The notes under the pieces are model-generated. The model worked only from the letters and a program-made list of their open reading frames with translations, ran no database searches and was not told the DNA's origin. From IMG/VR virus record IMGVR_UViG_3300035701_000003: a stretch of 64,000 bases of DNA. The stretch is one strand, 5' to 3'. This document shows positions 6,012 through 54,108 of the stretch, piece by piece; the first letter of the stretch is position 1; the number at the start of each line of letters is the position of its first letter. This DNA comes from a virus. Made by a program: the position numbers and the translations under genes.

Positions 6012-6013
6012 AT

Positions 6014-6772
6014 ATGGAAGACACCTCTAAAATAATAATGGTTAATGAAAGTTACGTGTGTATTCAAGCTGAAGGTAAATATATGGGGGTTCCTCATATT
6101 CTTATAAGGATGAGCGGCTGTGCCTTGAGATGTATGTTTAAAGATTCTATCTGCGATACTTTTTATAGTTCTTTTGTTCCTGAAAAGGGTAAGTATACTT
6201 TACAGAACATTAAAAAAATTTATGAAGATAATCCTGATATACATTATACTATGATTACGGGGGGAGGGCCTACCTTTAACCCTCCGCTTTTATGTACTTT
6301 AGTTGATTTAGCTAAAAGCTATTCTCATTTTGTTACTATAGAGACTGAAGGTTCTACTTTTGTTGCTACTAAAGCTGACTTTATTTCTCTTTCTCCTAAA
6401 TTAAGTAACTCTAGACCTCGAGTAGGTTCTTATAAAACTTTTGATAAGGACGTTATAATTAGTCCCGTTCAAGTACGGCGACACGAAACCTTACGTAAAA
6501 ATTATAGTGCTATGCTTAGAATGATTACTATGCATCCGGATTATCAACTTAAACCTGTAATAAGTAATATTACAAAGGATATGAAGGAGGTAAAAGAATT
6601 GCAAGAGAAATTAGATGTTCCTAATAGTAAAGTTTGGTTAATGCCCGAGGGAATAACTAATGATCAATTACAAATATTGAGACCAGATCTTATAAATTAT
6701 TGTGTTAAGCGTGGTTATAATTATTCAGACCGTTTACAGATAGTAGCCTTTGGGAATAGGAGAGGAGTGTAA
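6014..6772 (+). CDS. queE: 7-carboxy-7-deazaguanine synthase (radical SAM)
   Basis: IQAEGKYMG.P..LIRMSGCALRC.....ICDT (Cx3Cx6C variant), ITGGGP, TIETEG, SLSPKL, VWLMPEG, YSDRLQI..FG..RG. Confidence 0.92.
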   Translation: MEDTSKIIMVNESYVCIQAEGKYMGVPHILIRMSGCALRCMFKDSICDTFYSSFVPEKGKYTLQNIKKIYEDNPDIHYTMITGGGPTFNPPLLCTLVDLAKSYSHFVTIETEGSTFVATKADFISLSPKLSNSRPRVGSYKTFDKDVIISPVQVRRHETLRKNYSAMLRMITMHPDYQLKPVISNITKDMKEVKELQEKLDVPNSKVWLMPEGITNDQLQILRPDLINYCVKRGYNYSDRLQIVAFGNRRGV

Positions 6773-7597
6773 GTGAGTCAACGACTTCTCTTTGGAGATT
6801 TTTTAAAGATTAGTGATACACTTCCTAATGATTCTGTTCATTTATTTATAATAGATCCTCCTTATCTTATAGATTATAAGGATTGGGATAAACAGAACGA
6901 GACCTTTTTAATAGACTGGGTAAATATTTGTATTAATAAAATCTCTCCTAATGGCACTATGTGGATTTTCATGGCGAAGGATAATCTTTTTACCCACGAC
7001 ACCTGTAAACCGGGTTTAGTGAATCTTCTGCAACTTTATGGCACCGTTCATTTAGAAAATTGGGTTACTTGGAGCCGGCAAAAAGGAAGAGGTTCTTCTA
7101 AACATCTCAAATCTCAAAGGGAAGAACTTATACATTTTACAAAACATCCTACAGATTATACTTGGAATAATTTAAAAGTAATAAGGGAAGTAATAGTACC
7201 TTATGTGAAAGATGGTAGGGCTAGAGGTTGGTTTCTTAATGAAAAAGGTCAGAGAGTAAGATGGACGGGACTTGGTAACTCTTGGGTATTTTCTCAACCT
7301 CAATGGAATGGAAGATTAGATAAACAAAGACATACTGCCCAAAAACCTTTTTTACTATACGAAAGATTATTGTTACTTAGTTCCAATCCGGGCAACTCAG
7401 TAGTAGACCCTTTCGCTGGGTCTTTTACCTTAGCTCATGTGTGTAAATATCATCATAGAGATTACGTAGGGTTTGAAAATAACGGAAAAATATTTTATGA
7501 AAATAGTGCGTACTTTTATGACCATTATAAGGATGTTATAAAAGCTTACGAAGAAGAAAAGAGAAGTTTTATAAATAGCACGCCCCAGGAGGTTTAA
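6773..7597 (+). CDS. Beta-class N4/N6 amino-methyltransferase (DNA methylase)
   Basis: Motif IV IDPPY is N-terminal; H.AQKP..LYERLL..SSNPG..VVDPFAGS (motif I) is C-terminal. Confidence 0.9.
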   Translation: MSQRLLFGDFLKISDTLPNDSVHLFIIDPPYLIDYKDWDKQNETFLIDWVNICINKISPNGTMWIFMAKDNLFTHDTCKPGLVNLLQLYGTVHLENWVTWSRQKGRGSSKHLKSQREELIHFTKHPTDYTWNNLKVIREVIVPYVKDGRARGWFLNEKGQRVRWTGLGNSWVFSQPQWNGRLDKQRHTAQKPFLLYERLLLLSSNPGNSVVDPFAGSFTLAHVCKYHHRDYVGFENNGKIFYENSAYFYDHYKDVIKAYEEEKRSFINSTPQEV

Positions 7598-12401: not shown

Positions 12402-12932
12402 ATGATAGATGATTTTACCGAAATATTAGATCATTACGATATTCCTTATAAGGAAAAATTATTATCTCCCGAGATTGATGTTTTATGTCCTTTTCATGAT
12501 GATGTTCATTTTGGTAACGCTAAATACAATAAGAATCGCGATACCTTCCATTGTTTTAGTTGTAATGCTAGCGGTAATAAATATCAATTTGTAAGTAAAC
12601 TAGAAGGTTGTACTTTAAAGGAAGCAGAAGCTTTACTTGAAAGTAATTTTAAGAAAGAAAGAGAAACTTATAATATTTCTACCTTAAAAGATAACTTAAA
12701 AAGGAAAACTAATAAATGGTTAACTAGGCCCTTTGCTTCAGCTGCTTTACTTTCGTGCAACGATAAGATGTTGCAAGTTATGTGTGAAAAAAGACCTCCG
12801 TATTCTTTTCTAAAGAAGTGGTTTCCCATTATGTGTTATTTAAGAGGGCCTTCTTCCGAAGAATTACTTGAAAAAGAAATAGTAAATATTTACGGAGAAT
12901 TTTATAAACAGTTAAATCAGGAGACGACATGA
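12402..12932 (+). CDS. Stand-alone CHC2 zinc-finger protein (primase Zn-binding domain) with a helical C-terminus
   Basis: CPFHDD...FHCFSC.ASGN..QFV..LEG..LKEA; no TOPRIM domain. Confidence 0.85.
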   Translation: MIDDFTEILDHYDIPYKEKLLSPEIDVLCPFHDDVHFGNAKYNKNRDTFHCFSCNASGNKYQFVSKLEGCTLKEAEALLESNFKKERETYNISTLKDNLKRKTNKWLTRPFASAALLSCNDKMLQVMCEKRPPYSFLKKWFPIMCYLRGPSSEELLEKEIVNIYGEFYKQLNQETT

Positions 12933-13822
12933 GTGAATTACCGGATATGCAAAATCAGCAAGATGGGCGAAATATTTCTATTGATAGAGTAGGGGTTACT
13001 AATGTATATTTTCCTATTAAAGTAAGATTAAAAGGGGAAGACGAAGATAAGCAACCTTCCTACCTTCCTGTTTCCGCACATACTAAACTCTTTGTAGGGT
13101 TGCCTAAAGAATATAAAGGGGCTAACTTATCTCGTTTTTACGAGAGCTTGATGGAATTTAATCAACATGTTATATCTGCAAGAACTATGCCTAAACTATT
13201 AGACTTATTAAGGACTAAGTTAAAAAGTAATGATGCCTATGCTAGATTTGAATTTGATTACTACTTGGATAGAAAAGCCCCCGTGTCTAAGAAAGAAGCC
13301 CCTCAGCGATATAGATGCGCGTTTACTGGTATTAAAAGAAATGGTGATTATAGTTTTATAATAGAAGTAAACGTAGTAGCTGCAAGTCTTTGTCCTTGTA
13401 GTAGGGAAATGAGTTTATTAACTAATTTAACGCACGGGAAAGAAATAACCTATAGTAAAGACTATCAGTGTCCTGATGTGGCTAAAAAGGTTGGCATGGG
13501 GGCTCATAATCAACGTTCTCACATTAGAGTCGAGTTAATTTCCGAAGAGGGTGATATTATATGGTTAGAAGATCTTATTGGGGTTATAGAAAAACAAGCT
13601 TCTGCTCCCGTGTATCCTATATTAAAAAGAGCCGATGAAAAATTTGTTACTGAACAAGCTTACAATAATGCTAAATTTTCTGAAGACATTACGAGAGATG
13701 TACAGATTGCCATCGAATCTTTACCTCATGTAAAAGCATGGGCTTTGAGGGTTTACAACGAGGAGTCAATTCATCCCTATGATGTGGCTTGTTATCAATG
13801 TTCTCCCAGTTGGAAATATTAA
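12929..13822 (+). CDS. folE2: GTP cyclohydrolase I type B (FolE2/MptA family)
   Basis: PDMQN, IDRVGV, KGANLSRF, SLCPCS, GAHNQRS, YPILKR.DEK.VTE.AY.N.KF.ED and EESIH. Confidence 0.95.
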   Translation: MSELPDMQNQQDGRNISIDRVGVTNVYFPIKVRLKGEDEDKQPSYLPVSAHTKLFVGLPKEYKGANLSRFYESLMEFNQHVISARTMPKLLDLLRTKLKSNDAYARFEFDYYLDRKAPVSKKEAPQRYRCAFTGIKRNGDYSFIIEVNVVAASLCPCSREMSLLTNLTHGKEITYSKDYQCPDVAKKVGMGAHNQRSHIRVELISEEGDIIWLEDLIGVIEKQASAPVYPILKRADEKFVTEQAYNNAKFSEDITRDVQIAIESLPHVKAWALRVYNEESIHPYDVACYQCSPSWKY

Positions 13823-14759: not shown

Positions 14760-15605
14760 ATGGAAGATATTAAATTAAAATTTGCAGCTATTTCCTTTTC
14801 CGGAGGAATGGATTCCTCTACTCTATTGCTACGTTTATTATACGAAGGTTATGTTGTAATAGCTTTAAGTTTTGATTATGGTCAAAAACATTCTTTGGAA
14901 CTTACTAAAGCTAAGGAACTTATTGAGTACCTTTACTATGGTGGTTATCATGTAGTTCACCGTGTAATTACATTAACTGGTCTTAGTGCTTTATTAGATT
15001 CTACTTTAGTACGTGGAGGAGCTGATATTCCCGAGGGTTACTATAAAGAAGAGAATATGAGAGTAACCGTAGTGCCTAATAGAAATAAAATCTTTTCTTC
15101 TATCGTACAAGCTGTTGCCTTAAGCACCGCTAACAGATATAAAACCGTTAGTGTAGTAGCTTTAGGTATACATCAAGGAGACCATGATATTTATCCCGAT
15201 TGCCGACAAGAGTTTAGGGATGCTGATTTACAAGCCTTTAGATTAGGTAACTGGGATAGCGATAAAGTAACTATGTATACACCTTATTTAGATTTAACTA
15301 AATTTGAAATCTTGCAAAATGGGGTATTACTTTGTGAGAAACTGCAGTTGAATTTTGACGAAGTTTATAAAAGAACCAATACTTCGTATAAACCTATTTT
15401 TATAGGTAATGATATTTACCCCGGTCATCCTGAGTTTGGGGGTAATTGGTATCCCGATTATAAGTCTGCTTCAAGTATAGAGAGGGTTGAAGCTTTTATA
15501 AAATTAGGACGCCCCGACCCTTTGCAATATGCCGATGAGAGCGGGCTAGTATCATGGCGTGCTGTGACAAATTACTTTACGAATCTTATAAATAAGGTTA
15601 AATAA
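14760..15605 (+). CDS. queC: 7-cyano-7-deazaguanine synthase
   Basis: SFSGGMDS, FDYGQKH..EL, TVVPNRN, GIH.GDH..YPDCR. The C-terminal YKSASSIERVEAF..LG..DP replaces the Zn-cysteine cluster. Confidence 0.93.
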   Translation: MEDIKLKFAAISFSGGMDSSTLLLRLLYEGYVVIALSFDYGQKHSLELTKAKELIEYLYYGGYHVVHRVITLTGLSALLDSTLVRGGADIPEGYYKEENMRVTVVPNRNKIFSSIVQAVALSTANRYKTVSVVALGIHQGDHDIYPDCRQEFRDADLQAFRLGNWDSDKVTMYTPYLDLTKFEILQNGVLLCEKLQLNFDEVYKRTNTSYKPIFIGNDIYPGHPEFGGNWYPDYKSASSIERVEAFIKLGRPDPLQYADESGLVSWRAVTNYFTNLINKVK

Positions 15606-17530: not shown

Positions 17531-18301
17531 ATGACGAATAAGATTGCGTTATCGGTGGAACTACCCATAGACCTTTTACGACTATCAGATTTACTCGATC
17601 AAGATTTTGTAATAGCGAGTTATTGTTTAGAGTATCCTTATTATCATGCTTTTTATAAAGAGCGTAGGCAAGAAAAAGAAGTGTTTACTTATCTTGACAA
17701 TGGTGCTTTTGAATTAGGTAAAAGTATTGATAGTAAAGAATATGGGAAGTTAATAGATGATATTCGCCCGCATGTTGTAGTATTACCAGATGTTGTGAAT
17801 AACGCTAGGGATACTGTACATGAATCTCGTAAATTCTTGAAATCTTTTACAAAAGACGTTCCTTGTTATATGGGGGTATTACAAGGTACCAGTCTTTCAG
17901 ATTATCTATATTGTTTATACTTCTACTTAAAGATGGCCGAACATTATCCTATAAGAGTGATAGGAATACCTTATCATTTATTCTATCGACCGACTCTTTT
18001 ACGTAAATATGGAATAAATGACATATGTAAAGAACATGAAATACAAATACATATACTAGGCTTACCTAATCCTTTTGAAATAGTACCTCTTCATAATTTT
18101 TCACAAGTTACATCTGTCGATACTTCTCTTCCTATTTCAGCAGCTTGGCAAGGGATGGATCTAGCCGCCTATAGCTGGGTCGAGGGATTTAGAGTAGCAG
18201 TAGACGCTGTGGTAGATGGACCTTCTCAAGATTTATCCGAACATAACATAGGATTTCTTAAACATCTCTGCCATAATATCTTACAGGAGCATTTGATATG
18301 A
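17531..18301 (+). CDS. TGT-fold (tRNA-guanine transglycosylase/DpdA-like) protein, candidate DNA 7-deazaguanine insertase
   Basis: LDNGAFE, VLPDV, GVLQG, GIP, IHILG and SVDTS follow the TGT TIM-barrel motif order. It co-occurs with folE2/queD/queE/queC and overlaps the polA start. Confidence 0.7.
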   Translation: MTNKIALSVELPIDLLRLSDLLDQDFVIASYCLEYPYYHAFYKERRQEKEVFTYLDNGAFELGKSIDSKEYGKLIDDIRPHVVVLPDVVNNARDTVHESRKFLKSFTKDVPCYMGVLQGTSLSDYLYCLYFYLKMAEHYPIRVIGIPYHLFYRPTLLRKYGINDICKEHEIQIHILGLPNPFEIVPLHNFSQVTSVDTSLPISAAWQGMDLAAYSWVEGFRVAVDAVVDGPSQDLSEHNIGFLKHLCHNILQEHLI

Positions 18302-21300
18302 TTTTTGAAATGAAATACTATCCTTCATGTCATCCTGAAAATTGTAAAGAATGCCCTTTAGGGAAACAGGAGGGTATAAAAGTAGTACGCTCTATTTTAC
18401 CTTCTCACGCTAAAGTACTCTTTATAGGGGAAGGTCCTGGGGAAGTAGAGAATGAAAAAGGTATTCCTTTTGTAGGAAAAGCTGGCGAACTACTATCTCA
18501 AATTATGATAGAAGTGGGTATTAACAGGGATGACGTGGCTATTGCTAATACGGTGACTTGTAGACCTCCCGATAACAGAACTCCTACTACTAAAGAGATT
18601 AAAATCTGTTCTCAATTTTTACATTTAGAAATAGCCTCCTTAAAACCTTCTTTAATTGTTCCCTTGGGAGCAGTTGCTTTAAAAGTGATATATCCTTCCT
18701 TAGGTACTATAACTAAAGTAAGAGGAAAATTTGTAGACCATCCTGAATTGGGTTGTAAAATATTACCAGCTTTTCATCCATTTTATATTCTTAGGAATCC
18801 AACCGAAAGACATTTTCTAGTGGATGACTTAAAGAAAGTATCTGATTTTATGCATGGAAAAATTAGTATACCTGAGAAACAACCTACTTATTATCATACT
18901 ATAACTACTAGAAAACAATTAGATTGGGCTGTCGAACAATTACATAAAAATACTATATGGGCTTGTGATACTGAGACTACTTCTGTAAATCAATTAGAAG
19001 CGGAAGTGTTTATAATTACTTTCTCCTGGAAATCTCATAGCGCTATACTGATGGATTCTAGATTATTTAAAAACGATTTGGAATACTTTTGGGCTAAAGT
19101 AAAAGAAGTTATGGAGAATAATAGCTGCAAGATATTTCATAATGGGGGATATGATATTCAATGTTTTATAAACCATGGAATACAAGTTCAAAAATATCAC
19201 GCTGATACTATACTTATGTATTATATGCTCACTCAAACTATATTACCAGGTTTGGATAAGCTAACTTGGGATTTCTCCGATTTGGGGGGTTATGATTTAT
19301 TACTAGAAAGATATAAAAAAGAAAATACTATAAACTCTTATAAAGATATTCCGGTTGAAATAATACATCCTTACGCGTGTTCTGACGCTGATGTTACTCT
19401 CCGTTCTTATCTCGCTATGTTACCTCAGATTGAGAAACAACACCTTTCTTTTGTATTATTTGATATTATGATTCCGACTCAAAAAATATTACTTAGAGCC
19501 GAATATAACGGAGTATCTATCGATAAGAATTACTTGGATAAAACTATAGAAAAGTATACTAAGAAGATGCAAGACCAATTAACCGTAGTTAAGAATGTTC
19601 CTCAAGTAAGACAATTTGTAGAGGATAAACGAACTCAAGAAAAAGCTATATTAAAATCTAAATGGGAGAAATCTAAAACTTTAACTAAGAAGTATCCTGG
19701 TTTCGAAGATTATTTACAGGCACGCTTACTTAAGTCTCCGGATTCTTTAACTACCGAATTTAATATGAATTCCCCTAAACAGTTAAAAGAATTGCTTATA
19801 GATAAAATGGGATTAAAAATTATTAAGACTACAGCTACGGGACAGCCTTCAGTAGATGGGGAGGTATTAGAAGAGTATGCTAAACATAATTCGTTTTGTA
19901 ATGCTTTGCAGGAGTATCGAACTTTAAGTCATCTAAAGAGTACTTTTTTAGTTGGTATTCTAAATAGATTAACTTCTCAAAATAAGGTTCATACAGACTA
20001 CTTTTTATGCACCACCGACACTGGTAGAATCAGTTCTAGAGATCCCAACTTGGCTAATATTCCACGTACTGGTACTGCAGATGATATAAAAGATATTTTC
20101 TGTTCCGATCCTGGTGATTGGTTAATGGAAGCTGACTTAGCACAGGCGGAGTTCCGTTGTATAGAAGGTTCTCAAAAAGTATTAATGGAAGATTTTACTA
20201 CTAAGCCTATTAAAGAAATAAAAAAAGGAGATAGGGTATTAGCTATAGATGAATCTCCATTAAAAGGTTCCCCAAGGAGAAAATTTAAGGTAGCAGAAGT
20301 TTTAAAAACTCATTATCAAGGTAAAAAAGAATGCGTTAGAATTTCTTCTGAGGAGAATAGAATTATATGTACAAAGGATCATAAATTTTTGAAAAACTCT
20401 TCTAGAAACGAAAACTATGGGATAAACAGATGGGAAAGTCTTGAGACGAATGATTTATGTTATAATTTACCTATTTCTTATATAAAAAATAAAAAAGAGT
20501 ATCTTGAAGGCATGTTGTTTGGATTGTATCTAACAGATGGCCACTTAAAAAATGATACTGACTATCCTGTTTTAAGTATTTGTCAATCTGATAAGGAGAT
20601 AATTGATTGGGTTTTTACTTTTTTGAAGGATTACGGCTTTTCATGCAAGAGATTTTTTGATAAGCATGCTTATTATATTAGTTTAAGCAACAAGAAAGAA
20701 GTTACTAGGTTTCTAAAAATTTTCAGTAAAGAAAGATCTTTAGACTCCCAAAGAGGAATAGTGGCCGGAATGATATTAGGAGATGGTTGGATTGGAGGAG
20801 ATGGTTGGATTAGAGGCAATGATAAAACCTTTAAACAAACTGGTATTGGTATAGGTTTAAGTATTGTTCATCCCGAGGTTATGGAAATTTTATATAATTG
20901 TCTTAATTCTTTAAAAAATTGTTATTCTTTTACTTATAGAGTATATAATTTTCCTTATAAATCTGATAAAGAAAATAAACCCTTTTATCATTTTTATTTT
21001 TCTGCGATTTGTATGTTTTTATTTCCTCAGTTGATTCCGGGGAGAAAACAAAAAAGATTCTATGAAGTTTTACTTCGTTTTACCAGTTTACAGAATATTA
21101 ATAAAGTTAAAGTAAGGATAGAAAAATTACCTAAAGTTTATCCTACTTATGATTTAACTACTACTACCGGGACTTTTATTTGTGAAAACTTTTTAGTACA
21201 TAATTGTTGGATGGAATATTCTAGAGATCAGCAAGCCTTGGAGGATTTAAATAACGGATTAGACATTCATAAACTTATAGCTGCAGTAGCTTATCATGAT

Positions 21301-22002
21301 ATAAAGTTACCGAGAGATGCAATAAACAAGGAAACTTTTTTGGAATTAACTAAGGATGTAACTAAAGCCGAAAGACAAGATACTAAAACTATAGTGTTTG
21401 GAGTTATGTATGGAAGAGGTGCCCCCAGCGTAGCCGCCCAATTAGGAATAAGTACTTCTAAAGCCCGAAAGATTATAGATGTTTTCTTTAGTAGATACCC
21501 ACAAGCTTCTTTTTGGATTAAAACAACTATAGCTACTACCCGAAGAGACGGATATACTGTAAATTTATTTGGAAGAAGAAGAAGATTACCTGATATATTA
21601 TCCCCAATTCAGGGGGTGAGAGCTGCCGCTGAAAGACAAGCTATAAATGCACCCATCCAATCAGGGGCTTCGGATTTAACTTTCTTAGCTGGAGGCAGGA
21701 TATTCCGACACATATGGCAAAATAGAATGAAAACTCGGTTAGTATTAACCGTTTACGATTCTTTAGTATTTAATATTCCCGATAATGAATTAAAAACAAT
21801 AGTAGATTTAGTTAGTGTAGAGATGATTAAAAAACCTTTAGATTCGATAATGGTTCCCATTGGATGTGAAATAAAGGTAGGAACTCACTGGGGTACTCTT
21901 ATGGAGATAAATCCTAAGGAAGACTGGAATATCGTGTATAATAAACTTATAGAACATAAAAAATTAAAAGATGTTAAATTTACACAAAATAAAAGAGGTT
22001 AA
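18298..22002 (+). CDS. polA: Family A DNA polymerase with N-terminal family-4 uracil-DNA glycosylase, 3'-5' exonuclease domain and an intein
   Basis: UDG: C..CPL, GEGPG..E...G.PFVG.AG, CRPPDNRTP, HP. Exo: DTET, HNGGYD, YA.SDAD. Pol: TGRISS.DPNL.NIPR, motif A DLAQAEFR, motif B K...FGVMYG, AERQAINAPIQSGASD, motif C TVYDS. Confidence 0.95.
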   Translation: MIFEMKYYPSCHPENCKECPLGKQEGIKVVRSILPSHAKVLFIGEGPGEVENEKGIPFVGKAGELLSQIMIEVGINRDDVAIANTVTCRPPDNRTPTTKEIKICSQFLHLEIASLKPSLIVPLGAVALKVIYPSLGTITKVRGKFVDHPELGCKILPAFHPFYILRNPTERHFLVDDLKKVSDFMHGKISIPEKQPTYYHTITTRKQLDWAVEQLHKNTIWACDTETTSVNQLEAEVFIITFSWKSHSAILMDSRLFKNDLEYFWAKVKEVMENNSCKIFHNGGYDIQCFINHGIQVQKYHADTILMYYMLTQTILPGLDKLTWDFSDLGGYDLLLERYKKENTINSYKDIPVEIIHPYACSDADVTLRSYLAMLPQIEKQHLSFVLFDIMIPTQKILLRAEYNGVSIDKNYLDKTIEKYTKKMQDQLTVVKNVPQVRQFVEDKRTQEKAILKSKWEKSKTLTKKYPGFEDYLQARLLKSPDSLTTEFNMNSPKQLKELLIDKMGLKIIKTTATGQPSVDGEVLEEYAKHNSFCNALQEYRTLSHLKSTFLVGILNRLTSQNKVHTDYFLCTTDTGRISSRDPNLANIPRTGTADDIKDIFCSDPGDWLMEADLAQAEFRCIEGSQKVLMEDFTTKPIKEIKKGDRVLAIDESPLKGSPRRKFKVAEVLKTHYQGKKECVRISSEENRIICTKDHKFLKNSSRNENYGINRWESLETNDLCYNLPISYIKNKKEYLEGMLFGLYLTDGHLKNDTDYPVLSICQSDKEIIDWVFTFLKDYGFSCKRFFDKHAYYISLSNKKEVTRFLKIFSKERSLDSQRGIVAGMILGDGWIGGDGWIRGNDKTFKQTGIGIGLSIVHPEVMEILYNCLNSLKNCYSFTYRVYNFPYKSDKENKPFYHFYFSAICMFLFPQLIPGRKQKRFYEVLLRFTSLQNINKVKVRIEKLPKVYPTYDLTTTTGTFICENFLVHNCWMEYSRDQQALEDLNNGLDIHKLIAAVAYHDIKLPRDAINKETFLELTKDVTKAERQDTKTIVFGVMYGRGAPSVAAQLGISTSKARKIIDVFFSRYPQASFWIKTTIATTRRDGYTVNLFGRRRRLPDILSPIQGVRAAAERQAINAPIQSGASDLTFLAGGRIFRHIWQNRMKTRLVLTVYDSLVFNIPDNELKTIVDLVSVEMIKKPLDSIMVPIGCEIKVGTHWGTLMEINPKEDWNIVYNKLIEHKKLKDVKFTQNKRG
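20158..21204 (+). mobile_element. Intein (349 aa) with LAGLIDADG homing endonuclease, inserted directly after PolA motif A
   Basis: Starts CIEGSQKV, block B ICTKDHKF, LAGLIDADG-like GLYLTDG and GMILGDG, block F TYDLTT..GTF, ends FLVHN with +1 Cys. Confidence 0.93.
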
Positions 22003-38673: not shown

Positions 38674-40305
38674 ATGAATACTTGGTATCTAATAGGATGT
38701 AGTGCTAAGAAAGCATCTACCCCTCAAACACCTGATTTATTATATCAAGGGCCTCTTTTTGTACAGCCTTTTAAGTATTGTGAAAAGATATACAAACCGG
38801 AAGAAGGAGATAGAATATTCGTATTAAGTGCAAAGCATGGTTTATTACATTTAAGACCTAATCTGTCCTATATGGAGGTTATTGAGCCTTATTCTTTTGA
38901 TTTAACAAGGGCTAACAAAAGTACTTTGAGGAAGTGGGGAGGTATGGTGGCTATACAACTTGATCAATATATTTCGAAATATCAGATACCTTATCCTCTT
39001 AAGTTGGTATTTTATGCACACCGTCACTATAGAGACGCCCTAAAACCTTTTATAGAAGAACTCCAGATATCTGTGGAAGTTCCCTTACTGGGGGTAGTAA
39101 GAGGAAAACAAGTTAAATATTGGAAACATAAATTAAATGATATGTTTGAAGGAGAATCAAAGGAAAGTTGGAGAGACCATCCTGTGATGTTAACTCAAAA
39201 GGGGGGCGCTTATATAAAATCTGATTACAAACCACAAATTGAAGGAAATTTTATGAAAGCGTTGTCCGAAATGAAATTACAGAAAAAATCAAATACTGTT
39301 AATTCTAAAGGAGGCTACTTTGGGGTTAGAGCCATCGACCAATTCCCCGCAAAGTTCATGGAATATATTAACTCTTGTGATTCCTTTACTGATGTTACAG
39401 CTGGTTCCGGACTTTTCCCCCGCTATCTGGCTAGTTTAGGTAAAAAAGTTAATATATCTGATAGGTCTTATTACTCCTATTTAATGCTTCGAACCTTATC
39501 CCGTAACCTTTCCTTTACAGGATCTTACGAAGACTGGTTAAAAGATACTTATGGACAGATAAAGGGCATTTTAGAGACTCCTTTTACAGGTTATTTGTGT
39601 AATAATGAAATCTTATCTAAGAAATTTTCTTTGGAGACTGCTAAATTTATTGATTCTTATTGTAGATTTTATCAGAGTAATGTTTTAATGTTATATGCGT
39701 TAGGTAAAGTATTCTCTACCAAGTTTAGTTTTAGGGGCTTAGGGTGGTGTAATAAAACTACCGCTGGGTATAAGAGTAACGAAGTTACTCCAAGTACTAT
39801 GGCGGAATGGATTATAAGAACTGCTAATTTAATTATGTTAAGATTAACTGAACTGGACGAACGTTTCTCCGTTCCCGATATATTCTATGGAGATGTTTTA
39901 CAAGCCTTAGATTCTTTTAAAGTTAAGGATGGTATGGTTTATGCAGACCCCGCCTGGCCTTGGAGCGAAAAATTTCCTGGGACTAACCCTTATATATGGC
40001 AGACATATGATATTTCCAGCATCTTGACACAGACTAAGATTCCTGAAGTAAGATTTTGGCAAAGAGAAGATACTATAGATTCTATACTAGAAGAAATTAA
40101 AGGTTGGGGGGATAGGGCTTTCGAAAGAGGGGCAAAATACTTTGTAGTATGCAATCAAGATACTAATTACCCAAGTTGTGAAGAAGTATTTGATTGGTTT
40201 AGTAAGAAATTTAATACTGTTGAAATTATTTATAATTATGAAGATTATAGTAGCGCAGCTGGTAGAAAATATACAACCGGTTGGGGGATATATACCAAGG
40301 AATAA
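38674..40305 (+). CDS. Fusion of a DUF6884-like domain and an alpha-class amino-methyltransferase (variant motif IV DPAW)
   Basis: N-terminal LIGCSAKK, LY.G.LF, VLSAKHGL, IEPY. C-terminal DVTAGSG (motif I), ISD.SYYSY and VYADPAWP. Confidence 0.7.
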   Translation: MNTWYLIGCSAKKASTPQTPDLLYQGPLFVQPFKYCEKIYKPEEGDRIFVLSAKHGLLHLRPNLSYMEVIEPYSFDLTRANKSTLRKWGGMVAIQLDQYISKYQIPYPLKLVFYAHRHYRDALKPFIEELQISVEVPLLGVVRGKQVKYWKHKLNDMFEGESKESWRDHPVMLTQKGGAYIKSDYKPQIEGNFMKALSEMKLQKKSNTVNSKGGYFGVRAIDQFPAKFMEYINSCDSFTDVTAGSGLFPRYLASLGKKVNISDRSYYSYLMLRTLSRNLSFTGSYEDWLKDTYGQIKGILETPFTGYLCNNEILSKKFSLETAKFIDSYCRFYQSNVLMLYALGKVFSTKFSFRGLGWCNKTTAGYKSNEVTPSTMAEWIIRTANLIMLRLTELDERFSVPDIFYGDVLQALDSFKVKDGMVYADPAWPWSEKFPGTNPYIWQTYDISSILTQTKIPEVRFWQREDTIDSILEEIKGWGDRAFERGAKYFVVCNQDTNYPSCEEVFDWFSKKFNTVEIIYNYEDYSSAAGRKYTTGWGIYTKE

Positions 40306-40899: not shown

Positions 40900-41595
40900 A
40901 TGGCTACTAAAACAGAAAAAGAAAAAGCATTAGAAGCTACTATAGCAAGTCTGGAGAAGCAATTTGGTAAGGGCACTATAATGCAAATGGGTAAAACTCC
41001 TATAGAAAAAATAGGAGCTATTCCTACTGGTTGCATGTCCATAGATGAAATTACTGGTATAGGTGGAATTCCCAGAGGAAGAGTAACTGAGGTATTTGGG
41101 CCGGAGATGTCTGGTAAAACTACAATGTGCCTTCATATAATAGCACAAGCTCAGAAATTAGGGGGTATGGCTGCTTTTATTGACGTAGAACACGCTCTTG
41201 ATTTAAATTACGCTTCTAATATCGGGGTTAATGTAACTAGTTTATTGATATCTCAACCAGACTATGGAGAACAAGCTCTTGAAGTAGCAGACGCTTTGAT
41301 AAGAAGTAACTCTGTAGATATTGTTGTAGTAGACTCCGTAGCAGCTTTAGTCCCAAAAAGTGAATTAGAGGGAGAAATGGGAGACTCCACCATAGCCCTT
41401 CAAGCACGTTTAATGTCTAAAGCTTTACGGAAACTTACGTCTAATGTTAATAAATCTAATACAGCTTTAATATTTATAAATCAACTTAGAAGTAAAATTG
41501 GGATTATGTTTGGTAATCCCGAATGTGTTGATCCTTATACTACGGAGGTTGAATTGGAAGTTCCCGAAGATATTTATAAAATATTTTTTGAGTAA
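40900..41595 (+). CDS. recA: RecA N-terminal part (208 aa) fused to a 23-aa N-intein fragment
   Basis: IEKQFGKG-like start, [62 protein letters not shown], then CVDPYTTEV and a stop. Confidence 0.95.
41524..41592 (+). mobile_element. Split intein N-fragment ([23 protein letters not shown])
   Basis: Begins with Cys exactly at the GNPE|TT junction of RecA; resembles intein block A. Confidence 0.88.
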
Positions 41596-41599
41596 ACCC

Positions 41600-41628
41600 T
41601 TGAATTTTTTCCTCCTATACTTATATAT
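41600..41628 (+). promoter_or_regulatory. Putative promoter TTGAAT-16/17-TATATA for the endonuclease and C-intein genes
   Basis: Lies in the 58-bp gap after the recA-N stop, followed by a GGGAG RBS. Confidence 0.5.
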
Positions 41629-41653
41629 CATAAGTAACAACGGGAGAAAAAAA

Positions 41654-42619
41654 ATGGATTTATTATTAAAATATTTTAATATTGTTATAACGAAGAATTT
41701 TTTGGTAAAACTTAAGTTTAAGAATGAATTTAAAGTTAAACATATGAAAAATATTAGGAAAATTATTCCGAAAGTAAATGGGCCTTCATTGGAATATTAT
41801 CAATATCATTTGGGGGGAGACACCGGAAGACAGATTTTTAATGAAAGAAAGAAATATTTCGGGTATCAAAAATTAGCAGAACTTGTAATAGCGAATAAAC
41901 TTTATGATAATGACGTACAATTAGCTGGAATACAAAAGAAAGTTTTACAAAATAATCAAAATATTAAAAAAGGTGTTATAGAATCTCAGCCTAAAACTTG
42001 GCATAATCCAGATTATGTATCCTCTTTGTTGAAAAAAAGAGCAATATCTATGAGTAAATTAGATTTTTCCTTAAATAAAAGTAAAAAAGCAAAAGAGTAC
42101 TGGGCTAGCGATAGGGCTATAGCCCACCGAGAAAAGATTTCAAAAAATCACAAAGAGGGTAAAAGTTTCTCTTTAGTCAAATGGCAAATAGAAAATGGAG
42201 TAAAACATAGTTCTTCTTTATTTCTAAGAAAAGGAAAAAATTTAAATTATTTAGAATATTTGTTTAGTTTGATGTTAGATGACTTTAGTATATTTTATGA
42301 AATAGAACAAAATATTAAAATTGATAATATTAATTATTTTCCAGATTTTTTTATACCGAGATTGCGTTTAATAATTGAATTATTTGGTGATGTTTGGCAT
42401 TGTAATCCTTCTTTAGTTAAAGTTTTTGAAAATAGTAAAGATATCTCTCCTTTTAAAAAAGATCCTAAAATAGTATGGCAAAAGGATAAAGAAAGACAAG
42501 ATACTTTTTTAAAAGCCGGTTATCGTTACTTGGTTTTTTGGGAAAACGAGTTTTCTTTTGGCCGATTAGAAAGAATTTATAAATTTTTAATAAAAATAGA
42601 AAAGGAATTACATGGATAA
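41654..42619 (+). CDS. Free-standing Vsr/DUF559-like homing endonuclease between the recA halves
   Basis: Basic N-terminal repeats; N.LE..F...L, YFPDF, IIELFGD.WH, D.ERQ..F...GY..LVFWE. The ATG at 41654 has an RBS. Confidence 0.8.
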   Translation: MDLLLKYFNIVITKNFLVKLKFKNEFKVKHMKNIRKIIPKVNGPSLEYYQYHLGGDTGRQIFNERKKYFGYQKLAELVIANKLYDNDVQLAGIQKKVLQNNQNIKKGVIESQPKTWHNPDYVSSLLKKRAISMSKLDFSLNKSKKAKEYWASDRAIAHREKISKNHKEGKSFSLVKWQIENGVKHSSSLFLRKGKNLNYLEYLFSLMLDDFSIFYEIEQNIKIDNINYFPDFFIPRLRLIIELFGDVWHCNPSLVKVFENSKDISPFKKDPKIVWQKDKERQDTFLKAGYRYLVFWENEFSFGRLERIYKFLIKIEKELHG

Positions 42620-43010
42620 GAAGTATATAAAAGTTAAAATTACTTTAGGAACTTTATTTAAAAAATTAGGCGTGAAAGATTTTAAAACTCCTTCTGTTTT
42701 ACCAGTTGATACTTTAGGAATTAGAATAAAATCTTTTGATACTGCATTATCTCAGGATGTTTTTTCTTTAATAAAAGATTTAGTAGTAAAAGCTCCAGTA
42801 CCTTATCATTTTATTCTAAAGTCTCTGAATGGACAAGAATTAAAAACATCTAGTCATCATAAGTCTTATAAAGATAAAGAATGGGTTGAATCATTTAAAA
42901 GATTTGAGTTAGAAGAAGATCATCTTAAAGTCGAAAAACCTTTAGATATTGTAGATTTGACAGTGAAAAATACTGAATGTTATTATGCTAATGGTCAATT
43001 AAACCACAAT
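42612..43010 (+). mobile_element. Split intein C-fragment
   Basis: Carries the TxxH, block F and terminal HN motifs with +1 Thr. Confidence 0.9.
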
Positions 43011-43421
43011 ACTACACCTGGCGGTAATGCTCTTAAATTTTATGCTTCTATGAGAATTGATATAAGGAAGAAAACGGCTATTAAACAAGGAGATCGTACT
43101 GTTGGTAATATAACTAAGGTAAAAATTGTAAAAAGTAAAGTATCTCCTCCTTTTAGAGAAACTGAGGTTAGTATTATTAGTCCTTATGGAATAGATATAA
43201 TAGGGGATATATTAGACAAGGCGGTAGATTTTAAAGTTATAAAGCAAGGCGGGGCCTGGTTTACTTACAAAGAAGATAGATGGCAAGGTAGGGATTCCGT
43301 AACGGACACTTTAAAGAAGGATCCTATATTTTTAGATCAGGTAAAATCCGAAGTATTAGTAGCCATGAAAGAAAATAAGGAAGTTGTTAAAGAAAAAGAA
43401 GTTTTACCACAATTAGTATAA
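42612..43421 (+). CDS. recA: 133-aa C-intein fragment fused to the RecA C-terminal part (136 aa)
   Basis: Block B LKTSSHHK, block F IVDLTV.NTECYYANG, block G LNHN, then TTPGGNALKFYASMRIDIR, KVKIVK.KVSPPF and GAWF. Confidence 0.95.
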   Translation: MDKKYIKVKITLGTLFKKLGVKDFKTPSVLPVDTLGIRIKSFDTALSQDVFSLIKDLVVKAPVPYHFILKSLNGQELKTSSHHKSYKDKEWVESFKRFELEEDHLKVEKPLDIVDLTVKNTECYYANGQLNHNTTPGGNALKFYASMRIDIRKKTAIKQGDRTVGNITKVKIVKSKVSPPFRETEVSIISPYGIDIIGDILDKAVDFKVIKQGGAWFTYKEDRWQGRDSVTDTLKKDPIFLDQVKSEVLVAMKENKEVVKEKEVLPQLV

Positions 43422-49438: not shown

Positions 49439-49650
49439 TGTTTGAAATAATATTACCGGATGCTATTGAAATTAAGTTTGCTGACTGGGTAAAACCAAAC
49501 ATGCTTAAACAAAGAAAAGAAAGTGAATATTTTTATGCTAAGATTATGAGAGTAGGAGCAGATTGTTCTAGTGGTATTATGATAGGTAATGGTAATAACT
49601 TCTTAGATTTATATTATTTCGCTGATGTTAAAATACTAAAGAAATCCTAA
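49429..49650 (+). CDS. Hypothetical protein
   Basis: 73-aa coupled ORF. Confidence 0.6.
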   Translation: MAMMFEIILPDAIEIKFADWVKPNMLKQRKESEYFYAKIMRVGADCSSGIMIGNGNNFLDLYYFADVKILKKS

Positions 49651-50903
49651 TGCTTCAGAAACTAATTTTAAAAAACTTTCAAGCTCATAAACATTCTGAA
49701 ATTGAATTCTCTCCCGACGTTACATGTATTACCGGGCTTAACAATCACGGTAAAAGTTCTATTTTTAGAGCCCTTCAAAAATGTATAAGAGACATTCCTG
49801 AAGGTAATTCTTTTATAATGAATACTCCCTTTCAAGAAGATACTTGTACCATTACTGTAGTGTCTGATAAAGGGGAAGTTATACGACAGGTGAAAAGGAA
49901 TATTGCTTCCGATGCTAACTTTTATAAAGTAAGTAGAATTGATGGTACCGAAGAAGAATACGTTAAGTTTGGAAAAACAGGAATTCCAGAAGAAGTTACT
50001 AATAACTTTCCTACTTCACCTCCTCAAATGTTTGGCGACGTGGAAATCGATATGAATTTTCATAATCAATTGGATTCTTTATTTCTGATTCAAGGCGCTG
50101 GTCTTTCCTCTTTACGAGGTAAGGTATTAGGTAAGACTACTGGGGTGGATAAAGTACAAAGGGCCATTCAAATAAGTTCCTCCGAAGAGAAGAAAGAGAA
50201 GCAAATCTTAAAAATTCTAAAGCAACAGTCAGAAGATGTAGCGGTTAAATTACTTGAGTATAAAGATATTGATACCTTCTTAAAACTATTAGTTAGTTGC
50301 GAAAATCTTTTTCAGGAAACAGAGGAGAAAAGAATTTTAATTACTAATATAATAGGTTGTTACGAAATTCTTAAAAACATAGTAACTAAAGCTAAGCAAT
50401 TAAAAATTACTATTAAAGTAATAGATATTGATTCTTTAAAGGAATTTTTTCAAAAGATAACTCAGACTTATAATGTATATAATCTTGCCAACAGATTATT
50501 AACTACTAAAGAACAGATTACTTATTCTCATCAAGTATTAGAAATAACCAAAGTAGTTCCTACGGAAGACTATCAAGTCCTACAGAAGAAATTATCTCTC
50601 TTAAAGAAACTAAAAGATTTATATAGTATTCAAATTAGATATAATGATACTAAACTGAAAGTGGCTTATATTAATTCTCTTTTACCCTCTTTGGAAAGTA
50701 ATAATTATCATATTATTCAGAGTCTATCTAAGTATAATAGTTTATTTACTATACAGGATACTTTATTTTTACTAAAGAAGAGAATAATTGATAAACAGCA
50801 GATTATATCGAATAAAATAAACGAACTTAGTAGTACCGAACTAGAATTAACTAATTTTAAAAAAGAAATTAAAGTATGCCCGACATGTGGAAAGGCTTGG
50901 TAA
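49650..50903 (+). CDS. sbcC: SbcC/Rad50 N-terminal half (Walker A, Q-loop, coiled coil, ending at the Zn hook)
   Basis: L.LKNFQAH, ITG.N.HGKSS, Q-loop, long coiled coil, terminal CPTCGKAW-stop. Confidence 0.9.
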   Translation: MLQKLILKNFQAHKHSEIEFSPDVTCITGLNNHGKSSIFRALQKCIRDIPEGNSFIMNTPFQEDTCTITVVSDKGEVIRQVKRNIASDANFYKVSRIDGTEEEYVKFGKTGIPEEVTNNFPTSPPQMFGDVEIDMNFHNQLDSLFLIQGAGLSSLRGKVLGKTTGVDKVQRAIQISSSEEKKEKQILKILKQQSEDVAVKLLEYKDIDTFLKLLVSCENLFQETEEKRILITNIIGCYEILKNIVTKAKQLKITIKVIDIDSLKEFFQKITQTYNVYNLANRLLTTKEQITYSHQVLEITKVVPTEDYQVLQKKLSLLKKLKDLYSIQIRYNDTKLKVAYINSLLPSLESNNYHIIQSLSKYNSLFTIQDTLFLLKKRIIDKQQIISNKINELSSTELELTNFKKEIKVCPTCGKAW

Positions 50904-50904
50904 T

Positions 50905-51297
50905 ATGAGAAATATACTTGTTTTATTTTGTTTATTATTAACAATAAAAGTTTTAGGTCAAGAAGACGGGGACTTAAGATTTAACGAAAATAAAAATTAT
51001 ATAGAGATTTATGTGGATTGCTATGAAGAGGAGAGTATTCCCATATGTTCTATTGCGAATGGCGATTCTGTTTGGTGGTTTAAGACGGCTAGAAAACACA
51101 CACAGGGATGGTTTAATGTAGATACTCTTTATACAAAATATGGCGATTATTTTCACCCCTGTACTTGGGGACCTTACTACGACATACGTACAATAGTATA
51201 TATGAGAAAATTGCTTGATGTCCTCCTAGACGAGAAGATATATAGAGATTATTACTACTTTTATATTAATGGAAGACCGCATAATGATTATAGGTAA
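50905..51297 (+). CDS. Hypothetical protein with a Sec-type signal peptide
   Basis: MRNILVLFCLLLTIKVLG|QED. Confidence 0.6.
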   Translation: MRNILVLFCLLLTIKVLGQEDGDLRFNENKNYIEIYVDCYEEESIPICSIANGDSVWWFKTARKHTQGWFNVDTLYTKYGDYFHPCTWGPYYDIRTIVYMRKLLDVLLDEKIYRDYYYFYINGRPHNDYR

Positions 51298-52234
51298 TTT
51301 TACAGATTTGCACGCGAGAGCCGATACTCCTCAAGGAAGAACCGATAACTTCCGCAAGAGTATTCTTACTAAACTTGAGGAGATAGGACAGATCTGGAAA
51401 GATAACAAAGTAGAGATTGTTACTTTTACAGGAGATTTATTTGATAGTCCCGACCCTGCTTCTAGTGTGCGTAATGATGTAATATCAATTCTGAAGTCCT
51501 GGCGGCTACGTATTGTAGGGGTCGTAGGCTCTCATGATTATTTTGGTTACCAGATGAAAACTTTGAAGCGTACAGCTTTAGGGTCATTATACTATGCGGG
51601 TATTATTGACTTAGTAGGAGGAGCAGACCAGAAAGAGTACGTAGAATTTAGGCTTAAAGATTTTACTGCTGTTATTACAGGTACCCCTCATACTTACTGG
51701 GCAACTGATAATCTATTATATATAGAGAAGCCACGTTATGTGGAAGGAGCATTTCAGATACAATTAGTTCATTTTGATCTTATGAATAAGACAGTTCCTT
51801 GGCCGCATCTTACAATAGGGCAGATAAGAACAAGTTCCGATGTAGCATTCTGTGGGCATTATCATCCTGGTTGGGAAGTTCCGGTTATGGGCAAAGACCA
51901 CTGCTTGTTTATAAATCAGGGTTCTATAGGGCGTTTGGATAATACCGGCAAACAGCGAACTCCTAGAGTGTGTATATTACAGTTAACAGATTCATTTAAT
52001 CCGCCGGATATTACTTATGTATCATTGCAATCAGCTTTACAACATCCGTTTAAGGAATATATAAAAGAATCTAAAGAAATTAAGTCACAGGATATAAGTA
52101 AATTACTACAAATGATGGAGAACACAGATATAAACATTATAGACATTAAAACTGTACTTCCGAAAGTAGCGAAAGAATTTAATTTCGGGGAAGATGTTTT
52201 ATCTAAAGCGTTTGAATTATTAGAAAAAGTATAA
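51269..52234 (+). CDS. sbcD: SbcD/Mre11 nuclease
   Basis: TDLH, GDLFD, GSHD, LVH, GHYH and NQGSIGR. Confidence 0.92.
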   Translation: MEDRIMIIGNFTDLHARADTPQGRTDNFRKSILTKLEEIGQIWKDNKVEIVTFTGDLFDSPDPASSVRNDVISILKSWRLRIVGVVGSHDYFGYQMKTLKRTALGSLYYAGIIDLVGGADQKEYVEFRLKDFTAVITGTPHTYWATDNLLYIEKPRYVEGAFQIQLVHFDLMNKTVPWPHLTIGQIRTSSDVAFCGHYHPGWEVPVMGKDHCLFINQGSIGRLDNTGKQRTPRVCILQLTDSFNPPDITYVSLQSALQHPFKEYIKESKEIKSQDISKLLQMMENTDINIIDIKTVLPKVAKEFNFGEDVLSKAFELLEKV

Positions 52235-52501: not shown

Positions 52502-53074
52502 ATGTATACCATAACCAAACAATTCGATTTTTGTTACGGGCATAGAGTATGGTCTCAAACCCTGAATACCGAATTTAGTTTGGACTCTTGTCTTGCTTGC
52601 AGGCACCTTCATGGGCATCAGGCGAGAGTAATTGTATATTTACAGGCGGATACTCTCGTATCAGGAATGGTGACTGATTTCAAGCATCTTAATTGGTTTA
52701 AGAAATGGCTCGATGATGTATTGGATCATAAGTTTATTATGGATATAAATGATCCTTTATTAGTTTATGAAATACCTCATCTTTTTGACGGTCATAGAAA
52801 TTTAAAGCGGGATTATTTAGTAAAACACGCAATAGATGGGGGTTATTATACTCTTTATTTAGAAAAACTAGATGTTCTTAAATATGATTCTGCGTTGACA
52901 GAAAAATATGAAGGAATGGTTATAGTAAATTTTGTTCCTACTTCTGAAAATTTAAGTAGTTGGCTTTTTGATATAGTAAATGAAAGAATGAAAAGATTGT
53001 TTGTAAAAGTATCAAAAGTGGAATTTTTTGAAACCCCAAAATCAAGAAGTATATATACAGACGGTGGAGTCTAA
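52502..53074 (+). CDS. queD: 6-carboxy-5,6,7,8-tetrahydropterin synthase (long QueD2-like form)
   Basis: F.F.YGHR, C.HLHGH, VTDF..L...K..LD..LDH, PTSENL and ETP.S. Confidence 0.93.
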   Translation: MYTITKQFDFCYGHRVWSQTLNTEFSLDSCLACRHLHGHQARVIVYLQADTLVSGMVTDFKHLNWFKKWLDDVLDHKFIMDINDPLLVYEIPHLFDGHRNLKRDYLVKHAIDGGYYTLYLEKLDVLKYDSALTEKYEGMVIVNFVPTSENLSSWLFDIVNERMKRLFVKVSKVEFFETPKSRSIYTDGGV

Positions 53075-53143: not shown

Positions 53144-53404
53144 ATGTCTAACGAAGAAAAATTAATACAGTATACCAATAGAATAGAAGCTATAAAGAAG
53201 ATTAAAATATCTTCGGAGGCCGAGTTAAAAATGCTAGAAACTCAGTACCAAGAAAAGGAACAAGAATTAAAGGATCTTGGTGTAACTGATTTGGATAATC
53301 TTCCTTCTTTTTTACAAAATTTAGGACAAGAAATAACTACTGCAGAACAAAAGATAGAAAATGTGTTATCTGATATAGAAACTAAATTAACTATTAAAAA
53401 ATGA
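53144..53404 (+). CDS. Short coiled-coil protein, probable middle fragment of split SbcC
   Basis: Entirely heptad-like; ATGA-coupled to the SbcC C-terminal gene. Confidence 0.6.
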   Translation: MSNEEKLIQYTNRIEAIKKIKISSEAELKMLETQYQEKEQELKDLGVTDLDNLPSFLQNLGQEITTAEQKIENVLSDIETKLTIKK

Positions 53405-54108
53405 TTGATTCCGATTTACTACAAACTTTTAAGAGACTAAAGAATACGGTTTTAGCCCTAGAAGGGGAAAGGAATCTACTGCAGAAACAAGAAAAAGAAA
53501 TTATTGATAAAATCGTTTTCTCTGAACATGAAATACTCTTATATGAAAACGTAAGAAACTTATTAGAGTTATTCGTAAAAAGTACTGAGAAGGGTATTAA
53601 GAATTATGTAGAACCCTTAATAACAGAGGCTCTTGAATATGTATTCTCGCAATATCTTAAATTTCATCTTATACTTACTACTAGAAGGAATCAAATTGAA
53701 ATAGATTTTGTATTGATAAGAAGTTCAGATATAGAGCAGTTATACCAAGAGTGTATAAAAGACCCCAGTAAGGAAGACGATTTAATGGAGTTAGTAAAGG
53801 ATGCTAAGAATATTAACTACAACCAAGGAGGCGCTATCAATCAGGTAATATCTACTGTGTTGAGATTAGTTATATTAGAAATGTTGAAAATAAAGGGGCC
53901 TGTATTTTTTGATGAGCCTACTTCTATGGTATCCGAAGAGTATAGTACTAGATTAGGTCATTTACTATTATCTCTTAGCAGGCGTTTTAATAGACAACAT
54001 ATTTTAATTACTCATAGTAATTCCCTTGCAGCTTATGCTTCTAAAATTTATCAAGTAACTCAGGAAAATTCTATATCCAGAGTAACTTTAATAAATGATG
54101 GGGTATAG
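53401..54108 (+). CDS. sbcC: SbcC/Rad50 C-terminal half (signature, Walker B, H-loop)
   Basis: Coiled coil, then QGGA.NQV (signature), FFDEP and ILITHS. Confidence 0.88.
   Translation: MIDSDLLQTFKRLKNTVLALEGERNLLQKQEKEIIDKIVFSEHEILLYENVRNLLELFVKSTEKGIKNYVEPLITEALEYVFSQYLKFHLILTTRRNQIEIDFVLIRSSDIEQLYQECIKDPSKEDDLMELVKDAKNINYNQGGAINQVISTVLRLVILEMLKIKGPVFFDEPTSMVSEEYSTRLGHLLLSLSRRFNRQHILITHSNSLAAYASKIYQVTQENSISRVTLINDGV

Follow-up and report, generated by a model that had tools for sequence, protein, structure and literature searches.

A DUF6884–methyltransferase fusion gene in an uncultured phage genome and the association of its methyltransferase family with 7-deazaguanine operons

Phage DNA is known to contain eight derivatives of 7-deazaguanine. 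The gene at positions 38674–40305 of the viral sequence analysed here raises the question of whether a phage may modify such a base further, by means of a protein that couples a DUF6884 domain to a methyltransferase. The sequence (the window) is a stretch of 64,000 nucleotides of the IMG/VR record IMGVR_UViG_3300035701_000003, itself part of a genome of approximately 177 kb. A preliminary description, made from the letters alone, had suggested that in a phage with a preQ0 pathway this fusion protein could recognise or hydrate the deazaguanine and then methylate it. The methyltransferase (MT) family is shown below to occur in the 7-deazaguanine operons of phages as an accessory member. For the fusion protein itself, a role as a bifunctional enzyme tailoring 7-deazaguanine after its insertion into the phage DNA is a reading, drawn from sequence comparison, that we regard as evenly balanced.

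The fusion gene (plus strand, as are all its parts described here) was taken from the list of open reading frames (ORFs) and encodes 543 residues. The DUF6884 domain, of the DpdC family and YaaA-like, covered residues 5–151 (38686–39126) and was identified by Pfam PF21818 (E 4.4e-24) and by phrog_5935. The Pfam score of 85.6 bits was well above the gathering cut-off of 30, and positions 2–134 of the 135 in the model were covered, in agreement with the domain initially assigned. Both signature motifs named in PMC11701544 were intact and invariant in alignment A4, the CxxxK motif as C9-S-A-K-K13 (38698–38712) and the LSAxxG motif as L51-S-A-K-H-G56 (38824–38841). A linker of approximately residues 152–212 (39127–39309) matched no family, and standalone relatives of the MT began to align at about residue 212. 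The MT domain (39310–40302), a Dam-like class I S-adenosylmethionine (SAM) methyltransferase, was defined from 91 relatives, a structural model, Foldseek and VIA, and its family is called here the DPAWPW family. Motif I, for SAM binding, was DVTAGSG (residues 240–246; 39391–39411) and motif IV was DPAWPW (residues 425–430; 39946–39963), replacing DPPY. The motifs listed in the preliminary description were all found: LIGCSAKK, LYQGPLF, VLSAKHGL, DVTAGSG and YADPAWPW, the last at residues 423–430.

The architecture was repeated in a full-length homologue from a second sample, P0002, which was 76% identical to the window protein (P0001), with a linker approximately 20 residues longer. Both genes were flanked by an amidase, a DUF932 gene and two small ORFs. 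Since P0002 comes from another sample and shares both build and neighbours, the fusion is no assembly artefact, and a misassembled or chimeric gene was ruled out. The combination of the two domains was present in P0001 and P0002 only, among 5.8 billion proteins searched. A sequence search with the whole protein against the PDB and a megablast search against cultured phages returned nothing; tblastn against cultured phages returned four Caulobacter phages only, which matched the DUF6884 part only and carried uninformative annotation. A full-length single-sequence AlphaFold prediction of the fusion had a pLDDT (predicted local distance difference test) of 37, and the usable model was that of the C-terminal domain only.

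Viral and metagenome scans yielded 36 MT loci, which formed 25 clusters at 70% identity; those with flanks of 8 kb or more, 12 in all, were scored, the que genes being located by iterated hidden Markov model (HMM) searches seeded with QueC, QueD and QueE of the window. Genes queC, queD, queE or folE were present in nine of the 12 non-redundant loci, and in seven of these nine the nearest one lay within approximately 0.3 kb. In Pfam searches QueC was found on five of the eight MT-bearing viral records. The operons were tight and co-directional, with stops overlapping starts. The gene order was QueD-QueE-MT-FolE-DpdA-like-Gat-QueC in L030, QueD-QueE-FolE-MT-DpdA-like-Gat-QueC in L006, QueE-MT-FolE in L033 and QueC-MT in L014, L015 and L023. 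In the L007 group it was QueD-QueE-MT-orf-MT2-orf-FolE, with two QueC paralogues nearby. The standalone MT accompanied Gat-QueC, the marker of dG+, in three other lineages. The Pfam TGT model (PF01702) detected no DpdA on the eight MT-bearing viral records, and a DpdA-like family was recovered instead by neighbour clustering and a profile-to-PDB search. As a control, homologues of the conventional Dam of the window (PF05869) were retrieved from 80 viral loci; the 74 of comparable size contained one weak QueE-like match (Fisher p 5e-9). The N6_N4 methylase was tried as a second control, and no viral relatives of it were found. An absence of association with deazaguanine genes had been named at the outset as a result that would speak against the idea, and the opposite was observed.

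The family is small. In an exhaustive HMMER search, 1.84 billion representatives yielded 91 representative relatives. These amount to approximately 91 clusters at 50% identity, and standalone proteins of 320–370 residues make up nearly all of them; DUF6884 was carried by P0001 and P0002 only. Every occurrence was in DNA of uncultured phages or metagenomes: four diverse members used as tblastn queries detected no homologue in 50,697 records of cultured phages, and a motif-pattern scan of 185,579 prokaryote species, each represented by one genome, detected none. The closest viral relative of the window MT domain, on contig L003, was 36% identical.

Two arrangements within the family were observed besides. 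In L007 (9860–12251), and also in L008, L019 and L022, the operon contains two tandem MT paralogues, the first with DPAWPW and the second with DPIWPI, a motif shared by P0087, found elsewhere; the two could form a heterodimer or methylate in succession. On the short contig L124 (387–1974), a class I methyltransferase of 189 residues (Methyltransf_11/25) is directly followed by P0006, which has 41% identity to the MT domain, and the two genes share 11 bases.

The MT domain, of approximately 330 residues, had no Pfam, NCBIfam or PDB sequence match of its own. A comparison of its structure with D12-class enzymes had been proposed in the preliminary description. The AlphaFold2 model built from the alignment (pLDDT 92.4) had Dam, DpnM, T4 Dam or Mcbe1 as all of its top 15 Foldseek matches (probability 1.0), with E. 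coli Dam, DpnM and T4 Dam as the best. With VIA-align, Z-scores of 12–14 were obtained against many class I methyltransferases; the longest alignments were with DpnM (233 residues) and Dam, and N2-methylguanine (m2G) tRNA and rRNA methylases scored level with Dam. The look-alikes in BFVD were annotated as viral adenine methylases. The order of the motifs, with motif I followed by a helical/hairpin insert and then by motif IV, was of the Dam type. The Pfam model PF02086 (MethyltransfD12) did not match the fusion protein at E-values up to 1, and it matched 14 of 62 MT relatives (best 2.8e-10). T4 Dam was also the best, albeit weak, PDB match of the family profile, with motif I aligned and VyaDPA placed on VYVDPP.

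The substitution in motif IV, first seen in the window protein, was conserved across its relatives. In the D12 class this motif reads (D/N)PP(Y/F/W), and DPAW was found in its place. The features near-invariant in the 62 relatives were an N-terminal Y.G, motif I (D-x-T-A-G-x-G), (N/S)-D after strand 2, DPAWP(W), NPY and TQxTN. The consensus of motif I was D-[LIV]-T-A-G-x-G, in which D41, A44 and G45 were almost invariant, and the D, P, A, W and P of motif IV were each conserved in at least 90% of these relatives. A census from the exhaustive search, made without reference to DPAW, aligned 95 rows to the family HMM; 53 of them had DPAWPW, most others had close variants (DPAWPY/F, NPAWPW, DTAWPY, DFAWPW) and a single one had DPPW. 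DPAWPW is a hallmark of the family and its alanine a family character; because it is conserved across the aligned rows, it does not represent decay. An active methyltransferase is expected, since the SAM-binding motifs are conserved over the 62 relatives. A decayed, inactive methylase was ruled out by the family-wide conservation of both. On these grounds, the domain is Dam-derived and probably an active amino-methyltransferase of the DNA type, with an altered catalytic loop.

This kinship leads to the main alternative, namely an ordinary orphan methyltransferase for N6-adenine (or N4-cytosine) in DNA, with a loop that drifted to DPAW. The DUF6884 domain would then be only an additional module for DNA binding or base flipping, and the que linkage would reflect the co-inheritance of anti-restriction modules grouped in a single 'DNA modification' operon and no common substrate. 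The nature of the best structural matches, the annotation of the viral look-alikes and the relatives matched by PF02086 are in line with such an enzyme, as is a motif IV that keeps its D, its first P and an aromatic residue; the N6_N4_Mtase gene located directly after queE in the window (6773–7597) demonstrates that methylases can adjoin que genes. Against it stand the rarity of que genes around conventional phage Dam (one locus in 74, versus nine in 12) and, in several distant lineages, the insertion of the MT among biosynthetic genes, with stop codons overlapping start codons. Drift of the loop fits poorly with the replacement of the second proline throughout the family, and the phage already possesses two conventional amino-methyltransferases besides the fusion. 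The partner of the fusion is of the DpdC family, and the MT family was not found in the prokaryote genomes or cultured phages searched. We consider an ordinary DNA methylase possible but somewhat unlikely.

The DUF6884 half provides a second connection to 7-deazaguanine. DUF6884 was described as a distant relative of YaaA with a DNA-binding cleft and predicted base flipping, and CxxxK as its putative active-site motif (PMC11701544), which bears out the YaaA-like fold mentioned in the preliminary description. A genome-mining paper named DUF6884 as the Pfam domain of DpdC (PMC11888242), termed DUF328-like in an older paper (PMC5699537). The chemistry attributed to DpdC at the outset is likewise documented, as DpdC alone turns preQ0-DNA into ADG-DNA in vitro (PMC10164549). 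The association with transglycosylases, also mentioned there, was recovered in metagenomes, where the longer DUF6884 proteins include TGT-DUF6884 fusions and one DUF6884-DndB fusion (P0100, P0184). Many further fusions were to GIY-YIG, the commonest long architecture, to nucleotidyltransferase and to ParB-HTH. Standalone DUF6884 genes directly adjoined QueC in the full que clusters of L043, L045, L067 and L123; the same adjacency was seen in L044 and in a Rhodopseudomonas prophage. The two best viral matches to the window domain, L044 and L045, were both QueC-adjacent. Overall, que genes were present at eight of 84 DUF6884 loci, versus nine of 12 for the MT family (p 3e-6). In a FastTree phylogeny of 188 DUF6884 domains, the window domain had a long branch, and members adjacent to QueC were scattered. 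Given the family of the fusion partner and the conserved operon context of the MT family, both halves are tied to one pathway.

The Rhodopseudomonas case merits its own mention. In the prophage-like region L126 (7302–9230) of Rhodopseudomonas palustris HaA2 (CP000250.1), a DUF6884-GIY_YIG_3 fusion comes immediately after QueC; no further que genes were nearby, and the pair may be a separate two-gene system.

The genes needed for the substrate were found in the window, all on the plus strand. They were a QueE-like radical SAM enzyme (6008–6772; phrog_2076 'QueE-like', E 1.2e-39, and a weak Radical_SAM match), the GTP cyclohydrolase IB FolE2 (12929–13822; PF02649, E 3e-73), the preQ0 synthase QueC (14760–15605; PF06508, E 8.5e-37) and QueD of the PTPS family (52502–53074; PF01242, E 9.8e-27). 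A candidate DpdA-like DNA-guanine transglycosylase of 256 residues was located at 17531–18301 with the HMM of the MT-operon family (E 1.4e-21). It had no Pfam TGT match and matched only phrog_19058 ('unknown'), and it ends inside the start of a 1234-residue ORF (18298–22002). The corresponding family is composed of short (approximately 256–286 residues), transglycosylase-like proteins encoded beside Gat-QueC in uncultured phages, and a profile that included the window member had Salmonella DpdA (7ui4) as its sole significant PDB match (E 3.2e-4). BLAST with the Gat domain found no Gat-QueC among the window ORFs. No QueF or ArcS was noted in the window in the preliminary description, no search having been aimed at either. 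According to the rules of PMC6884629, FolE, QueD, QueE and QueC, together with DpdA, lead to dPreQ0, and Gat-QueC leads to dG+. Judged by family membership, the window appears to encode a complete preQ0 pathway, as first supposed, together with a DpdA-like gene; these genes are scattered rather than clustered.

Two que genes had neighbours of their own interest. The queE gene is the middle one of a three-gene run (5316–7597), between a 231-residue ORF and the conventional N6_N4 DNA methylase (PF01555), which starts one base after the queE stop; in the same phage this is a second methylase that adjoins a que gene. The 231-residue ORF weakly resembled the C-terminal portion of FolE2 in a pairwise comparison (E 0.002) and had no Pfam or PHROG match. 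QueD is located among an SbcC-like ATPase N-terminal part (49650–50903), an SbcD-like phosphoesterase (51269–52234) and a gene resembling an ATPase C-terminal part (53401–54108; weak SMC_N match, phrog_15167).

We propose the following sequence of events. FolE2, QueD, QueE and QueC would make preQ0, which the DpdA-like transglycosylase, by its family, would exchange for guanine in the DNA. The DUF6884 half would bind the DNA, flip the modified base and most likely convert dPreQ0 to dADG by hydrating its nitrile to a carboxamide, in the manner of Salmonella DpdC. The MT half would then methylate the deazaguanine derivative in the DNA in a SAM-dependent manner. Chemically, the C7 side chain would offer the most attractive target in its amide or amidine nitrogen, given the likeness of this atom to the adenine N6, itself amidine-like, that DPPY enzymes methylate; the presence of the standalone MT with Gat-QueC in three lineages therefore makes this nitrogen an attractive common target. 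The fullest form of the proposal, which we put forward tentatively and as a possibility, is that the DPAWPW family has kept the fold of Dam and switched its target from adenine to the side chain at C7 (carboxamide or formamidine) of deazaguanine. The phages that carry it would contain an undescribed methylated base, for example N-methyl-dADG or methyl-dG+, and in the present phage one polypeptide would hydrate dPreQ0 and then methylate the product.

The MT might also belong to the pathway and act elsewhere in it, on the free base or a precursor before insertion by DpdA, or on another atom such as N2, with a DUF6884 domain that recognises the base and does not hydrate it. The operon position QueE-MT-FolE fits a biosynthetic step equally well, and the pairing of the MT with plain QueC in L014, the high rank of the m2G tRNA and rRNA methylases and the fusion of DUF6884 to unrelated effectors, as for a recognition module, all agree with this scheme. 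It is made unlikely by the Dam-type insert with its conserved hairpin (R155), which points to a duplex DNA substrate, by the intact catalytic motifs of DUF6884 and by the action of DpdC on DNA (PMC10164549). Finally, a repair or defence protein apart from base modification, with DUF6884 as a sensor of mismatches or lesions, a role suggested for B. subtilis YfjM (linked to abasic and RNA-base lesions, PMC11701544) and the methylase marking or mimicking host methylation, would suit the position beside recA and recombination genes, the lack of que context of most phage DUF6884 genes and the neighbours of P0094, and is highly improbable as it leaves unexplained both the embedding of the MT family in que operons and the TGT and DndB fusions of DUF6884.

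Several observations weigh against the tailoring of a deazaguanine in DNA by the fusion. In the window the fusion gene adjoins no que gene, the nearest being more than 12 kb away. The fold and the insert domain are those of adenine methylases, and an N6-adenine target is plausible. The fusion protein had no NCBIfam match. The placement of DpdC in DUF6884 is the statement of one paper (PMC11888242). At 76 of the 84 phage DUF6884 loci no que genes were present, and the closest standalone DUF6884 relative, P0094, adjoins a Rieske protein and a C5 methylase. The DUF6884 tree, of low resolution for the window domain, did not assign it to a que-linked clade. For the MT family, no QueC was found on the 68.5 kb contig L003, estimated to be 66% complete, nor within 8 kb on the contig of P0004. 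L014 has the MT with plain QueC and not Gat-QueC, so the amide/amidine-substrate pattern is not universal and the C7 nitrogen as target stays speculative. The MT loci were retrieved by a DPAWP pattern; motif counts there are biased and the que context is unaffected.

Other features of the window were recorded. The fusion gene is near recA and recombination genes, and recA itself is in two pieces (40900–43421). The N-terminal part (40900–41595) corresponds to positions 1–201 of the RecA model; the C-terminal part (42612–43421) has approximately 130 extra N-terminal residues, followed by RecA positions 198–262 and RecA_C. Between them lies a 373-residue ORF (41498–42619) with no Pfam match, and the arrangement looks like a disruption by an intein or a homing endonuclease. 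A sugar aminotransferase of the DegT/DnrJ/EryC1 type is encoded at 60–1145, and a member of the same family is found approximately 5 kb from P0004, the standalone protein most closely related to the MT domain.

Comparison with known systems situates the two halves. DpdC of the Salmonella Montevideo Dpd system, which converts dPreQ0 to dADG in DNA, shares DUF6884 with the fusion (PMC11888242), and the CxxxK and LSAxxG motifs are kept here. As in bacterial Dpd, a DpdA-type transglycosylase and preQ0 synthesis genes are present in the window, but they are dispersed. The domain studied here differs in being short, fused to an MT, carried by a phage and without DpdB or DpdD-K, and the likeness is through the Pfam family and not through an alignment to Salmonella DpdC. 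With the D12 class (E. coli Dam, T4 Dam, DpnM; PF02086), the MT has in common the fold, the motif order and the conserved SAM residues, in addition to the weak profile match to T4 Dam. It differs by DPAWPW in place of DPPY, by the missing PF02086 match and by a phage-only family located in 7-deazaguanine operons. The TGT-DUF6884 and DUF6884-DndB fusions follow the same Rosetta stone logic, DUF6884 being joined to a partner from a deazaguanine system, whereas in the window the partner is a methyltransferase.

The only described methyltransferase tailoring 7-deazaguanine in phage DNA is DpdM (DUF3109), which acts on dPreQ1 (PMC10516641). Its role is analogous to that proposed for the MT, an accessory tailoring enzyme of the pathway. 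DpdM is a metal-binding CxxxCxxCC protein, whereas the MT is a Rossmann SAM methylase, and a kinship was ruled out by this fold and by the lack of a DUF3109 Pfam match. DpdM also needs preQ1, and hence QueF, which did not turn up in the window, where no search was aimed at it. None of the papers found, PMC6884629 included, mentions a methyltransferase of the Rossmann type in the deazaguanine clusters of phages.

The MT is a candidate second enzyme family for the tailoring of deazaguanine, phage-only and built into the deazaguanine operons. With no member known from a cultured phage, the product of the family has not been sought so far. The DpdC-like fusion offers a direct handle on the role of DUF6884 outside the bacterial Dpd system. 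Should the family prove to be a plain N6-adenine methylase, it would represent a conserved non-PP catalytic loop and an obligate pairing of two DNA modifications. If the MT does methylate the modified base, this would constitute a new natural DNA base, would show how the Dam scaffold was retargeted from adenine and would provide a single-gene tool for writing that base.

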